Source of the DNA: Acidimicrobiia bacterium
Lineage (GTDB): Bacteria; Actinomycetota; Acidimicrobiia; IMCC26256; JAGNEX01
Length of the DNA: 64,000 nt
Reading direction: 5' to 3'
Assembly: GCA_018003035.1 (NCBI GenBank)
Contig: JAGNEX010000007.1
Location: 14,393-78,392 of the forward strand
Both the position numbers and the translations under genes were made by a program. The notes beneath the pieces were generated by a model. It was given only the letters and a program-made list of their open reading frames with translations, was not told the DNA's origin and made no database searches. Positions 44,685 to 50,232 of this stretch are shown in pieces. How positions within the stretch are numbered: position 1 is the stretch's first letter; every line of letters starts with the position of its first letter.

Positions 44685-46544
44685 ATGACAGTGCGCCCCG
44701 ATCCACCCGTCCCTTCTGGATCGATGCTGGTAAGCGGTTCGGTCCAGGGACGGATCCCGCTGCCCAAGTACGAACCCCAATCCGACCCGGAATCCCTCGA
44801 CGTTTGGGGCTTTCCCGACTCAGGTTTTGAGGTCACCGACAAAGGCGTCGTCAAGGCCCGCGGTCACCGCTACGAGATCTCTGGTTCGGAGCTCCCCGAC
44901 CTGCTCCCGTGGATGCGTGACGTCGTCAAGATCGACATCGACGCATTCGATGTCCACGAAACGCACTATCCGCCAAAGATCCCGGCACCGGTCAAGAACG
45001 ACACGTTCCTGTCTGCAATCGCTGCGTTTCTGGGGGACGACCAGATCACCGACGACGACGAAGAGCGACTGCGTCGTGGCCACGGTCACACCCAAGAAGA
45101 GATGTACGCCATCAAGTACGGGTCTTTACCCCGGATCCCCGACTTGATCGTCTTCCCGGCCGATGACCTCGAAGTGGCCCAACTCGTCACGGCCGCTGTC
45201 GACGCAGATGTCGTCCTGGTCCCCTACGGTGGCGGCACGAACGTGACCGAAGCTTTGCGCTGTGATCCCGACGAAACTCGAATGATCGTCGCGGTCGACA
45301 TGAAGCTGATGGATCAAGTCCTCTGGATCGACCCGACAAACCTTGAAGCAGGCATTCAGGCTGGCGCCGTCGGTCGCCATCTGACCGACCGTCTGGCGGA
45401 ATTTGGCTTCACGATGGGCCACGAGCCCGATTCGCTTGAGTTTTCAACGCTCGGCGGGTGGATCGCCACCCACGCATCAGGCATGAAGAAGAACCGGTAC
45501 GGCAACATCGAAGATCTGCTGACCGACGTGACCGTTGTCACCCGCGACGGCGTCATCTCTCGCAACAACGTCGGCCCTCGCGAGTCCGTCGGCGCCGACC
45601 CTCGTCGTTTCATCTTGGGATCCGAAGGCAACCTGGGGATCATCACGCAGGCGACCGTGAAGATCTTTCCCCTCCCCGAGGTGCAGAAGTATCAGGCCAT
45701 CTTGTTCCCGACCTTCCAAGACGGGGTCGCGTTCATGTACGACCTGACCCGATCGGGCAATTGGCCAGCCAGTGCACGCCTGGTCGACAACCTGCAGTTC
45801 CAACTGTCCCAGACGCTCAAACCGAAGAAGTCTGGCCTCGGCAAGCTCAAGTCGAATGCCGAGAAGCTGTTCGTCACCAAGGTCAAAGGGTTCGACGTCG
45901 ACAAGATGGTGGCGTGCACCCTGGTGTTCGAAGGCAACCAGGAGCAGGTCGCTTCTCAGGAAGAGACCGTCAAGAGGCTGAGCGCCCAGCACAAAGGGAT
46001 GGCAGCCGGCGCCGAAAATGGTAAGCGCGGCTACCAACTCACGTACGGAATTGCATATATCCGCGACTTCATTATGCGCAAGTACATCCTGGCCGAGTCG
46101 TTTGAAACGTCCATGCCGTGGGACAAAGTTTTACCGCTCGTCGAGCAAGTGAAAGCTCGCATTACCGAAGAACATCACAAGCGCAATCTGCCAGGAGTTC
46201 CGTTTATTACCGCTCGGATAACTCAGATTTACGACACAGGCGCGGTGGTGTACTTCTACTTCGCGTTTTACCACAAGGGTGTCGAAAATCCTTCCCAGGT
46301 GTACGCCGAGATCGAACACGCTGCTCGAGACGAGATCCTCAAGGCGGGCGGCTCGCTGTCTCACCATCACGGCATAGGCCACCTCCGCAAAGACTTTCTT
46401 CCACGAATCTTTTCCGATGCAGCGCTCGGCTGGAATCGCCAACTGAAGGCGGCGGTCGACCCGGGCAACAACTTTGGCACCGGATCCCAAGCCATCAACG
46501 ACCCGCTCCCCGCCTCGACGGACACCGAGGAGGTCGGCCGATGA
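44685..46544 (+). CDS. agpS: FAD-linked alkyl-dihydroxyacetonephosphate synthase (AGPS-type)
   Basis: [9 protein letters not shown] FAD-binding segment. [43 protein letters not shown] triple-His loop (codons 46362-46370). N-terminal WGFPDSGF...[12 protein letters not shown] extension as in eukaryotic AGPS (from memory). Confidence 0.85.
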   Translation: [619 protein letters not shown]

Positions 46545-49204: not shown

Positions 49205-50232
49205 TGTCGAACGCCAACTTGCCGCCTTCAGGCGGCTCAGTACTCGTGACCGGCGCGTCCGGATTCCTCGGCCGCCACCTTCTCGCGGCGCTGTCGGAGC
49301 GCGGACGGGTGGGACATGGTCTCGTTCGCGACGTCGCCGCCTTCGTCGGTCAAGACTGGGTGGACGAACTAGGTGGTGTCTCGACGGTCGAGGGAGGGTT
49401 GTCTGACCGGTCGGCCTGGATCAGCAGTCCGGCGCTGTCGGACTGTCAATCGATCATTCATTCCGCCGCCCTCGTCGACCACAGCCGAAGCGAAGCCGAC
49501 AAGGTGTACCGCACCAATGTGGACGGCACGCTGGAGATGGTCCGGGCCGCTCATGATCTGGGTGCCCGGCTCGTGTTCGTCTCGACGTCGGGAACGGTGG
49601 GCTGTTTCGACGACCCGGACGCTAGAGCCGACGAGCTGGCTCCTTACGTCGAAGACGTCGTCAAAGACTGGCCGTACTACCACTCAAAGATCATCGCCGA
49701 ACGTGAAGCGATTGCCTTGGCAGATGACTTGGGCGTCGAGCTAGTCATCATCCGGCCGCCCGTCATGCTCGGACCAGGCGATCACCGCTTCCGCTCCACA
49801 AGCAACCTCATCAGGTTCATGAAGGGCAAACTGCCGTTTGTGATCCGGGGAGGTTTTGACTTTGTCGATATCCGCGATGCTGCCGCTGCGATGTGCGTTG
49901 CAGCGTCCATGCCCAGCCCCCGCCCGGTGTACCACCTGCCCGGAACCTCATGCGGCGTCCAAGAGTTCTTTCAAATGGCAGCGCCTTTTGCAGGCCGGCC
50001 TGCCCCACGATTTGTCGTGCCGTTCCGACCCGCATGGGTGCTAGCTTCTGGACTTCACAAGGTTGGCCTCCACGTCTTACCCGACCCCGTCGTTGTCGAA
50101 ATGGCGTCAAAGTACTGGGGCGTTTCAACGCTCTATTCGCCGATCGACCTTGATTTTTCACCTCGAGCGGGAGATGAGACTCTCGGCGATACGATCGCCT
50201 GGCTGAAAGCACACTGCCCCGATCTGACCTAG
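49204..50232 (+). CDS. Extended SDR (NAD-dependent epimerase/dehydratase family); candidate acyl/alkyl-DHAP reductase
   Basis: VLVTGASGFLGRHL, YYHSKIIAE (YxxxK). The start ATG shares its A (49204) with the upstream TGA (GTGATG). Confidence 0.8.
   Translation: MSNANLPPSGGSVLVTGASGFLGRHLLAALSERGRVGHGLVRDVAAFVGQDWVDELGGVSTVEGGLSDRSAWISSPALSDCQSIIHSAALVDHSRSEADKVYRTNVDGTLEMVRAAHDLGARLVFVSTSGTVGCFDDPDARADELAPYVEDVVKDWPYYHSKIIAEREAIALADDLGVELVIIRPPVMLGPGDHRFRSTSNLIRFMKGKLPFVIRGGFDFVDIRDAAAAMCVAASMPSPRPVYHLPGTSCGVQEFFQMAAPFAGRPAPRFVVPFRPAWVLASGLHKVGLHVLPDPVVVEMASKYWGVSTLYSPIDLDFSPRAGDETLGDTIAWLKAHCPDLT

Follow-up and report, generated by a model that had tools for sequence, protein, structure and literature searches.

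The window analysed, a 64-kb stretch of DNA from an uncultured Acidimicrobiia bacterium (Actinomycetota) of wastewater activated sludge, carries three closely joined genes on its forward strand. Gene 1 (44685 to 46544, ATG start) encodes a predicted alkyl-dihydroxyacetonephosphate synthase (AGPS or ADPS, EC 2.5.1.26) of 619 aa and was placed from the list of open reading frames; gene 2 (46541 to 49204), encoding a predicted FARAT fusion of 887 aa, and gene 3 (49204 to 50232), encoding a predicted extended SDR of 342 aa, were placed from the same list together with direct reading of the sequence. An earlier sequence-only reading had described the genes as joined by ATGA and GTGATG overlaps, and both junctions were confirmed by direct reading on the forward strand. 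At the first (ggccgATGAacc), a 4-bp ATGA stop/start overlap at 46541 to 46544, the gene 2 ATG occupies 46541 to 46543 and the gene 1 TGA 46542 to 46544. At the second (gGTGATGtcg, with GTGATG at 49201 to 49206), the TGATG stop/start overlap at 49202 to 49206 is made up of the gene 2 TGA (49202 to 49204) and the gene 3 ATG (49204 to 49206), which share 1 bp. Overlaps this short (4 and 1 bases) between stop and start codons are the usual operon architecture in high-GC bacteria and are unremarkable by themselves. Purine-rich, Shine-Dalgarno-like stretches precede both internal genes, GAGGAGG lying 7 nt 5' of the gene 2 ATG and AAAGGGG lying before gene 3. The internal starts chosen here were supported by 14 metagenome contigs encoding the identical protein, whose independently called genes use them likewise, and by alignments of gene 2 homologues, which begin at residue 2 to 4. 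With some gene callers gene 1 begins at Met14 (606 aa), a difference that leaves the conclusions unaffected. The three genes form one operon.

The 462-bp intergenic region upstream of the operon (44223 to 44684, forward strand), between the end of a thiolase gene (44222) and the start of gene 1, is its presumed promoter or regulatory region. A search of this region for a sigma-70-type consensus found none, and neither a promoter nor a terminator was recognised for the operon. An antisense open reading frame of 118-138 aa without a Pfam match (44118 to 44534) overlaps the upstream region and is probably spurious. Downstream on the same strand, a gene for a small DUF2752 membrane protein (50252 to 50701) follows gene 3 after a 19-bp gap, and a gene for a small RDD family membrane protein (approximately 50727 to 51359) follows after a further gap of about 25 bp. 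Both may be co-transcribed with the operon, although it is doubtful that they belong to the functional unit; downstream of the cassette they recur in a sister Acidimicrobiia genome alone (51% identity), other phyla lacking them there.

As the closest homologues of the operon outside the Acidimicrobiia lie in Myxococcota and Gemmatimonadota, albeit at only 45-65% identity, the possibility was considered that a fragment from one of these groups had been assembled or binned into an actinobacterial contig. This explanation is effectively refuted. GC content is flat across the 64-kb window (0.61-0.64), and the 14 contigs, which come from several samples, carry the same gene order including the flanks. 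The same order, with the flanking thiolase, desaturase, DUF2752 and RDD genes, was also found on a 1.7-Mb contig of the Acidimicrobiia MAG HK-STAS-ACTI-1, where the proteins of the operon and of the genes upstream are 80-90% identical and those of DUF2752 and RDD about 51%. The suspicion of an actinobacterium-like host was borne out, the host belonging to an Acidimicrobiia MAG lineage, and the cassette sits stably in this activated-sludge lineage.

The gene 1 protein matched two Pfam domains, the VAO/PCMH-type FAD-binding domain FAD_binding_4 (PF01565, aa 152-291, nt 45138 to 45557, E 1.4e-29) and the C-terminal cap domain FAD-oxidase_C (PF02913, aa 330-597, nt 45672 to 46475, E 2.3e-38), both on the forward strand. 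In a phmmer search against the PDB, guinea-pig AGPS (4bby) was matched with an E-value of 6.5e-160 (537 bits, aa 38-599 aligned to 93-654) and Dictyostelium AGPS (2uuu) with one of 1e-84 (288 bits), while the top non-AGPS flavoenzyme reached only 1e-23 (87 bits). Identity to the guinea-pig enzyme was about 51% across some 560 residues, and the same alignment places an AGPS-specific N-terminal region on the forward-strand gene from aa 38. Assignment as a GlcD-type oxidase was ruled out by the difference between 537 and 87 bits and by the NCBIfam GlcD models, which scored 143 bits against a cutoff of 568. The peptide strings quoted earlier for this protein, including SHHHGIG, are all present in its translation, and the HHH loop of AGPS reportedly has a role described by Nenci et al. 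in 2012. By alignment, R365, R460, Y523 and H560-562 of gene 1 correspond to guinea-pig R419, R515, Y578 and H615-617, two of these catalytic positions being marked by the R419H and Y578F variants in the PDB. The guinea-pig residues R419, R515 and Y578 correspond in turn to the catalytic residues R352, R447 and Y508 of Dictyostelium AGPS, whose roles have been described (PMC3509576). As judged from these alignments, in which every catalytic residue defined by mutagenesis is retained, gene 1 is an AGPS orthologue with an intact catalytic constellation, in agreement with the original assignment.

Gene 2 had been proposed to combine a FAR with a GNPAT-like acyltransferase, and this reading held in Pfam domains, PDB matches and invariant motifs alike. 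On the forward strand, a fatty acyl-CoA reductase domain (NAD_binding_4, PF07993, 'male sterility') spans aa 5-275 (nt 46553 to 47365, E 4.1e-61) and a GPAT/GNPAT-type acyltransferase domain (PF01553) aa 476-605 (nt 47966 to 48355, E 1.7e-22), both well over the Pfam cutoffs; about 225 aa at the C-terminus (aa 662-887) lie beyond the matched domains. The reductase part matched the fatty acyl-CoA reductase 7eoz (2.7e-27) in the PDB and the GPATs 9vuq and 8e4y matched the acyltransferase part only, as did the NCBIfam PlsB models, which covered the acyltransferase core at aa 443-661. In an alignment of 20 sequences, TGxTGFxGK (T6-K14) and Y194/K198 of YxxxK were invariant in the reductase part, and H491-x4-D496 and F569-x-E571-G572-x-R574-S575-R576 in the acyltransferase part. 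By domain content, gene 2 is a FARAT fusion with intact catalytic motifs. We know of no sequence rule that separates DHAP from glycerol-3-phosphate as the acceptor, or that predicts four-electron reduction to the alcohol; a preference of gene 2 for DHAP and its formation of the alcohol are suggested solely by its obligate linkage to AGPS.

This linkage was seen in a survey that retrieved 80 loci, M. xanthus not among them. In species-representative genomes with a full-length FARAT, AGPS lay directly 5' of the FARAT gene in all 45 assessable loci, and an orthologue of gene 3 (45-56% identity) lay directly 3' of it in 30 of 42, being missing from the remaining 12 otherwise complete loci. Hosts of the cassette include Myxococcota, Gemmatimonadota, Bacteroidota, Nitrospira and Sericytochromatia, among others, and the loci with gene 3 span at least eight phylum-level groups, with Cystobacter and Archangium among their hosts; the cassette is conserved across phyla. 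It is very improbable that no ether lipids arise from such an operon, with the FAR there to provide fatty alcohols or wax esters, the acyltransferase acting as a plain GPAT and the homologue of AGPS serving as a flavoenzyme of another function. Analyses of certain bacteria that possess elbD or agps homologues did find no ether lipids. However, gene 1 keeps every catalytic residue and shows some 51% identity to mammalian AGPS along 560 residues, and the linkage of AGPS to FARAT in all 45 loci is difficult to account for if the two proteins have no substrates in common.

The part played by gene 3 is less firmly indicated. Its description as an extended SDR was upheld by Pfam matches to Epimerase (9e-31) and 3Beta_HSD; no adh_short (classical SDR) match was seen in the Pfam search, and no NCBIfam model reached its cutoff, the top one being HpnA (133 bits against 368). 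Pfam NAD_binding_4 was also matched at 3.6e-17, and the thioester-reductase model TIGR01746 at 6.5e-23. The nearest structures are not sugar epimerases but carbonyl reductases, namely 3wj7, dihydroflavonol reductase (DFR), cinnamoyl-CoA reductase (CCR) and a ketoreductase. On these matches, gene 3 belongs to the extended SDRs and there to the carbonyl-reductase branch (NAD-dependent epimerase/dehydratase/3-beta-HSD family). Among its orthologues the Gly-rich loop, S127, Y158 and K162 are kept, as are R184, R197, R224 and R321. The first three of these arginines are invariant in the orthologue group and missing from the nearest solved relative, which fits an anionic (phosphate) substrate.

An alternative that we regard as unlikely leaves genes 1 and 2 in their proposed roles and makes gene 3 a fatty-aldehyde reductase carrying the FAR reaction through to the alcohol, or an enzyme for some other carbonyl, the C2 reduction being left to an unlinked SDR. 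Such an aldehyde-reductase role is possible given that 3wj7 (Gox2253), the nearest solved relative, presumably reduces aliphatic aldehydes, and the matches to NAD_binding_4 and TIGR01746 point the same way, as does the absence of the gene from 12 of the 42 full cassettes. Alkyl-DHAP reduction in eukaryotes is, moreover, carried out by another SDR class (PMC13256971). Characterised FARs, including that of the Tetrahymena FARAT, nevertheless form alcohols unaided, and the gene-3 type is missing from loci in which AGPS accompanies a stand-alone FAR, which would be unexpected for a helper of the FAR. The four invariant arginines, lying in the substrate half, are also easier to reconcile with an anionic substrate than with a neutral aldehyde, and the pathway is short of exactly one reductase, with gene 3 as the conserved neighbour. 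In other loci AGPS occurs as a fusion with a classical SDR, and two Gemmatimonadetes loci have an aminotransferase and an acyltransferase in the slot that follows FARAT, which together suggest that this slot handles the keto group of alkyl-DHAP. Gene 3 is most likely a reductase of the C2 ketone of 1-alkyl-DHAP and is put forward as the candidate for that step.

The operon was compared with known systems of ether-lipid synthesis. Its gene content, order and tightly spaced, one-strand layout are those of the M. xanthus operon MXAN_1676-1675-1674, which encodes AGPS, FARAT and an SDR of the NAD-epimerase family, and deletion of MXAN_1676 is reported to lower ether lipids (PMC9131029, PMC13012113). 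The M. xanthus proteins themselves were compared by published description, orthology being traced through MAGs of the related Cystobacter and Archangium, whose orthologues are 53-56% (AGPS), 40-43% (FARAT) and 46-48% (SDR) identical. The present operon differs in its Acidimicrobiia (Actinomycetota) host, in sequences only 40-60% identical and in having no elbABCDE-type cluster or CarF/PEDS1 nearby. Genetic testing in M. xanthus covers the AGPS gene only, not MXAN_1675 or MXAN_1674 individually, and the AGPS route is a minor contributor to its ether lipids (PMC9131029). The elbABCDE cluster of the same organism also leads to alkyl ether lipids and includes NAD-epimerase-family proteins (ElbA and ElbE) and, in ElbD, reductase and acyltransferase domains; unlike gene 2, however, ElbD has additional acyl-CoA-synthetase (AMP-binding) and ACP domains and works without AGPS (PMC9131029). 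Gene 2 contains NAD_binding_4 and Acyltransferase as its only Pfam domains. It shares the order of an N-terminal FAR and a C-terminal GNPAT-type acyltransferase with TtFARAT of Tetrahymena thermophila, which is reportedly bifunctional at the biochemical level (PMC9131029, PMC13012113), and with other protist FARATs, but it is shorter than TtFARAT (887 aa against about 1140 aa), is without peroxisomal targeting and stands in an operon with AGPS. The anaerobic routes (PlsA/PlsR plasmalogen synthase and the glycerol ester reductase Ger) likewise place an sn-1 ether or vinyl ether in bacterial glycerolipids, but through unrelated, oxygen-sensitive reductases of the benzoyl-CoA reductase/2-hydroxyacyl-CoA dehydratase type acting on pre-formed diacyl lipids, and no homologue of these is involved in the Acidimicrobiia operon.

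The eukaryotic peroxisomal route (FAR1/2, GNPAT, AGPS and acyl/alkyl-DHAP reductase) agrees with the operon in chemistry and protein families for the FAR, DHAP acyltransferase and AGPS steps, down to identical catalytic residues in gene 1 and the guinea-pig enzyme. It differs in that the bacterial pathway has no organelle and its FAR is fused to the acyltransferase. The eukaryotic acyl/alkyl-DHAP reductases (PexRAP/DHRS7B, Ayr1 and Dictyostelium ADHAPR) are classical SDRs (PMC13256971, PMC13200781), whereas gene 3 is a non-homologous extended SDR outside that class and would accordingly be a non-orthologous replacement. For this reason the label of a complete 'peroxisome-type' pathway, given in the sequence-only reading, stands for three of the four steps and fails for gene 3.

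Taken at a probability of roughly 75%, our main reading is that the operon encodes the first, oxygen-independent half of the 'aerobic' (AGPS-dependent) route to ether lipids and would yield 1-O-alkyl-glycerol-3-phosphate. In the proposed pathway, the N-terminal FAR of gene 2 would reduce a long-chain acyl thioester, probably acyl-CoA, to the fatty alcohol with NAD(P)H, and its C-terminal GPAT/GNPAT-type domain would convert dihydroxyacetone phosphate to 1-acyl-DHAP. In AGPS, oxidised FAD would then serve as the electrophilic scaffold, and its catalytic Tyr would take the pro-R hydrogen at C1; from the resulting flavin N5-DHAP adduct the fatty acid would depart and the fatty alcohol would join, giving 1-O-alkyl-DHAP. 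Gene 3 would most likely reduce the C2 ketone to 1-O-alkyl-sn-glycerol-3-phosphate, which housekeeping PlsC and CDP-DAG enzymes might carry on to plasmanyl phospholipids or alkyl-acylglycerols. More tentatively, and with slightly less than even confidence, we propose that the gene-3 family (MXAN_1674-type) is the missing bacterial 1-alkyl-DHAP reductase, replacing the eukaryotic classical SDR non-orthologously, and that the lineage thereby makes AGPS-dependent 1-O-alkyl glycerolipids.

The final lipid can only be inferred, as can the role of gene 3, and the sequence-only reading had rightly marked both as such. With the pathway as proposed, it is conceivable, though on balance somewhat improbable, that it ends in neutral lipids for storage or development (1-O-alkyl-2,3-diacylglycerols, comparable to TG-1 of M. 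xanthus) and not plasmanyl phospholipids or plasmalogens. M. xanthus accumulates the alkyl-diacylglycerol TG-1 (PMC9131029), and fatty-acid beta-oxidation genes are abundant in the window, which suggests a lipid-centred lifestyle. The window genes examined included none with a recorded Pfam family of the TMEM189/CarF type (PEDS1), and the only desaturase near the operon (41494 to 42441, PF00487) is DesA/delta-9-like, which would also agree with a neutral fate. Against this, no genes within the window indicate triacylglycerol or wax synthesis, and the fate of alkyl-glycerol-3-phosphate is not readable from three genes, neutral and phospholipid fates not being mutually exclusive.

The operon is real and was correctly read, but its novelty had been overstated: an identical operon has been published for M. 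xanthus (PMC9131029, PMC13012113), and the wide distribution of the cassette across bacterial phyla is in the literature or evident from public genomes. What has been found is thus a new host and not a new kind of system. Its 5.5-kb length makes the operon a handy construct for studying the dual supply of AGPS substrates by a bacterial FARAT and the identity of the alkyl-DHAP reductase. Bacterial ether-linked lipids serve as environmental and palaeo-biomarkers whose producers are poorly constrained. For aerobic, AGPS-dependent synthesis, experimental evidence comes from M. xanthus alone, which relies on this route only to a minor extent. An Acidimicrobiia lineage that turns up repeatedly in activated sludge and carries an intact, tightly coupled cassette is a reasonable candidate producer outside the Myxococcota. 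If gene 3 is the alkyl-DHAP reductase and the lineage makes ether lipids, it would be the first member of the Actinomycetota shown to use the 'aerobic/peroxisomal' route, and it would count as a hitherto unassigned source of the non-isoprenoid alkyl glycerol ethers that serve as environmental biomarkers.

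The operon occupies positions 44685-50232 of the window on the plus strand. The ORF listing and direct reading of the sequence placed gene 1 at 44685-46544 (619 aa); direct reading placed gene 2 between an ATG at 46541 and its end at 49204, and gene 3 between an ATG at 49204 and its end at 50232. The start of gene 2 overlaps the gene 1 TGA in the sequence ATGA (46541-46544), and that of gene 3 overlaps the gene 2 TGA in GTGATG (49201-49206). The coordinates and both junctions quoted in the sequence-only reading were therefore exact, and all of the peptide strings cited there were present in the translations. 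Both internal starts were preceded by purine-rich, ribosome-binding-like stretches, and identical boundaries were seen where genes had been called independently, on 14 metagenome contigs with an identical gene 2 product. Overlaps of this kind are common operon punctuation, and they support co-translation without being unusual. A promoter scan of the sequence yielded no promoter-like site, and terminator-like sites occurred at chance level.

Gene 1 carries FAD_binding_4 and FAD-oxidase_C domains (Pfam), and its match among all PDB sequences was guinea-pig alkyl-DHAP synthase (E 6.5e-160, 537 bits). As residues 38-599 of gene 1 align to residues 93-654 of the guinea-pig enzyme, the AGPS-specific N-terminal region is covered by this match. 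The Dictyostelium enzyme, ADPS, was matched with an E value of 1e-84, the top non-AGPS relative in PDB reached 87 bits and the NCBIfam GlcD models scored far under their cutoffs. With 537 against 87 bits, it was determined that gene 1 encodes an alkyl-DHAP synthase (AGPS) and not a GlcD-type oxidase, as had been claimed from the sequence. Two PDB point mutants, R419H and Y578F, were used to mark catalytic positions in the alignment. R365 of gene 1 aligns with R419 and Y523 with Y578, while R460 aligns with R515 and H560-562 with H615-617; the Dictyostelium equivalents R352, R447 and Y508 are residues shown to be important by mutagenesis (PMC3509576). From the AGPS match and the retention of R365, R460, Y523 and H560-562, it follows that gene 1 neither groups with glycolate or lactate oxidases nor has lost the Tyr/Arg/HHH constellation.

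The assignment of gene 2 as a reductase-acyltransferase fusion was likewise borne out. Pfam placed the 'male sterility' domain NAD_binding_4 (4e-61) at the N-terminus, over aa 5-275, and Acyltransferase (1.7e-22) at aa 476-605. A match to a solved fatty acyl-CoA reductase fell in the N-terminal half, and those to PlsB/GPAT models and structures were confined to the acyltransferase core. In an alignment of 20 homologues of 43-90% identity, the nucleotide loop, Y194/K198, H491-x4-D496 and E571-G572-x-R574-S575-R576 were invariant. This fatty acyl-CoA reductase (FAR) plus acyltransferase architecture is what the literature names FARAT.

Among 8,000 candidates scored for each gene, more than 6,700 homologues of gene 1 (E <= 1e-20) and more than 2,200 of gene 2 (E <= 1e-10) were found; these were mostly metagenomic, and many of the former are called alkyl-DHAP synthase by JGI. 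The genomic context was then surveyed with the FARAT alignment against one genome per GTDB species, retaining the best 80 loci. A full-length FARAT was present in 46 of these, with AGPS directly upstream on the same strand in every assessable case (45/45) and a gene 3 orthologue (45-56% identity) directly downstream in 30 of 42. The hosts among the best 80 loci included Myxococcota (Cystobacter and Archangium among them), Gemmatimonadota, Bacteroidota, Nitrospira, Sericytochromatia, Binatia and Bradymonadales, with only one further genome of Actinomycetota. All-against-all ORF clustering of 68 loci, in which the clusters were polluted by antisense ORFs of high-GC genomes, gave no conserved neighbours in addition to the three genes; the next most frequent family was confined to 7 loci.

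Gene 3 was confirmed as an extended SDR by matches to Epimerase (9e-31), 3Beta_HSD and GDP_Man_Dehyd (Pfam), and no NCBIfam model reached its cutoff (best HpnA, 133 against 368 bits). Its closest solved relatives are carbonyl reductases, comprising 3wj7, dihydroflavonol and cinnamoyl-CoA reductases and a ketoreductase; nucleotide-sugar epimerases are not among the nearest. S127, Y158 and K162 are conserved, and R42 is largely conserved, which fits the use of NADPH. Four arginines (R184, R197, R224 and R321) are invariant and three of them are missing from the nearest solved relative, so that a phosphorylated substrate would be expected. To our knowledge, no solved structure of an alkyl-DHAP reductase exists. 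The main rival explanation is that gene 3 acts as a fatty-aldehyde reductase, since it is also matched by NAD_binding_4 and thioester-reductase models and its nearest solved relative, 3wj7, is Gox2253, which we take to be a reductase of aliphatic aldehydes. This explanation is weakened by six loci from Spirochaetes and Deltaproteobacteria MAGs (L051, L053, L057, L058, L063 and L066, at about 4200-7900), where a stand-alone FAR of 422-689 aa comes after AGPS and no gene-3-type SDR is present. These FARs contain NAD_binding_4 only, without an acyltransferase domain; the gene for the DHAP acyltransferase must lie at another locus, or the enzyme must belong to a different type. An apparent 1352-aa AGPS-FAR fusion at a further locus (L062) was rejected as an artefact of maximal ORF calling, as AGPS and FAR lie in different frames and the ORF shows the FAR domain alone.

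Two variant architectures also bear on the step after AGPS. In two Gemmatimonadetes MAG loci (L071, 4524-6499; L044, 4008-5995), the place of the gene 3 SDR after AGPS-FARAT is taken, with overlapping starts, by a DegT/DnrJ/EryC1-family aminotransferase, behind which lies a PlsC-type acyltransferase. Purely as a hypothesis, the C2 keto group of alkyl-DHAP could here be transaminated and N-acylated to give an ether-linked amino-lipid. In two proteins of about 990 aa (P0172, L088 2829-5825; P0178, L087 1010-3985), a complete AGPS with 62% identity to gene 1 is fused to an SDR of the classical type at the C-terminus (adh_short at aa 739-921), with no FARAT gene adjacent; the reductase class joined to AGPS in this fusion is that used by eukaryotes for alkyl-DHAP. 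The fusions and the aminotransferase variant suggest that the enzyme following AGPS acts on the C2 keto group. Given these two architectures, the conserved position of gene 3 in the cassette, its carbonyl-reductase relatives, its catalytic residues and its arginines, we infer that gene 3 is the putative alkyl-DHAP reductase. A second actinobacterial class with AGPS-FARAT was represented by a Gaiellaceae MAG reached by protein search (GCA_045806065.1, L089 4243-9644), in which an AGPS of 551 aa precedes a FARAT of 891 aa without the gene 3 SDR. Near this cassette there are also a convergent FA_desaturase, a patatin/MFS protein and a weak match to CDP-alcohol phosphatidyltransferase.

From what is established for the eukaryotic pathway and for the chemistry of AGPS (PMC3509576), the operon would begin with the formation of a fatty alcohol by the FAR domain and of acyl-DHAP by the acyltransferase domain. 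AGPS would then exchange the acyl group for the alcohol via an adduct at N5 of the flavin, without net oxidation or reduction, and the resulting alkyl-DHAP would be converted to 1-alkyl-glycerol-3-phosphate by a reductase, the role assigned to gene 3. The first three steps are predicted from intact domains, motifs and the obligate AGPS-FARAT linkage, and the gene 2 acyltransferase is presumed to be specific for DHAP. The window genes examined included none of the CarF/PEDS1 type, so that by default the products would be expected to be alkyl and not alkenyl.

Proteins identical to those of the window occur in wastewater and activated-sludge metagenomes under the NCBI label 'MAG: Acidimicrobiia bacterium'. 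Scans with Rfam and for tRNAs gave no hit in the window, which leaves no RNA marker for taxonomy. In the nearest species-representative genome, the Acidimicrobiia MAG HK-STAS-ACTI-1, a 1.7-Mb contig carries the operon between the same flanking genes, with 80-90% protein identity upstream (SDR, desaturase and thiolase) and 51% downstream (DUF2752 and RDD). Because of these shared flanks and a GC content that is flat over the whole window, a chimera was rejected and the locus is a stable part of an actinobacterial lineage. The AGPS gene of this sister genome (L007 4098-5926) is split by a change from frame 3 to frame 2 near 5295, through misassembly or as a pseudogene; other assemblies contain an unbroken version (P0122, 634 aa, 89% identity). 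In a neighbour-joining AGPS tree, the two Acidimicrobiia sequences formed their own branch within an unresolved bacterial radiation, with a mean identity of 61-62% both to Myxococcota and to Gemmatimonadota, which share 59% with each other. Being roughly equidistant from the two, the Acidimicrobiia AGPS has no donor that can be named, and PMC13012113 likewise describes the phylogenetic signal of AGPS as too small.

The genes upstream of the operon, on the same strand (40449-44222), form a lipid-modifying set common to the sister genome and not to the cassettes of other phyla: an SDR (365 bits to NCBIfam PRK07856, whose cutoff is 255), a fatty-acid desaturase of the DesA/delta-9-like type at 41494-42441 and, at 42539-44222, a ChsH2-type zinc-ribbon/OB protein with an overlapping thiolase-like protein. 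The desaturase was considered as a PEDS1/CarF analogue and rejected, being a PF00487, DesA-like match; a tie to the operon was also rejected, as it is common only to the window and the sister genome, and the desaturase next to the cassette in Gaiellaceae is not related to it (E 1.3). Downstream, on the strand of gene 3, membrane-protein genes of the DUF2752 (149 aa) and RDD (about 210 aa) families follow at 50252-51359, at distances of 19 and about 25 bp; they may be co-transcribed with the operon, and their position is kept in the sister Acidimicrobiia genome only. Genes for fatty-acid beta-oxidation are abundant in the window, with several acyl-CoA dehydrogenases, an enoyl-CoA hydratase, CoA transferases and a thiolase. 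An 849-aa protein (16353-18899, minus strand) has as its sole Pfam annotation a C-terminal PAP2 lipid-phosphatase domain (aa 721-832), with no assignment over roughly the preceding 720 residues. Three long ORFs of 862, 351 and 441 aa (28695-31280, minus; 61008-62060, minus; 62493-63815, plus) matched no Pfam family at E <= 1e-5. Unrelated to the operon, positions 6305-10882 encode a signalling protein of 1133 aa with the domains HAMP-GAF-GGDEF-EAL and, immediately after it, a protein of 391 aa with an adenylate/guanylate cyclase domain.

A 2022 review of myxobacterial plasmalogens describes the three-gene M. xanthus operon (MXAN_1676-1675-1674), in which MXAN_1676 has about 42% identity to human AGPS, a resemblance on record since 2006. 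The fusion is named FARAT in a 2026 PNAS paper (PMC13012113), which reports a GTDB search for AGPS, GNPAT, FAR and PEDS1, with individual genes 'across several bacterial phyla' and all four in 73 genomes, 61 of them Myxococcota. Agps homologues in many phyla, including Actinobacteria, were reported in metagenome surveys (PMC11868695; bioRxiv 2026.06.23.733905). As these are already published, the window is a new host for a known cassette, and the novelty is modest. Unlike ElbD of M. xanthus, gene 2 lacks acyl-CoA-synthetase and ACP domains, and the candidate reductase is an extended SDR, whereas the eukaryotic enzyme is a classical SDR (PMC13256971). The observation of the operon was thus confirmed and its interpretation as an ether-lipid initiation pathway is supported, with ether lipids as the predicted product in this actinobacterium, the bacterial FARAT as the putative source of both AGPS substrates and the MXAN_1674/gene 3 family as the candidate bacterial alkyl-DHAP reductase.
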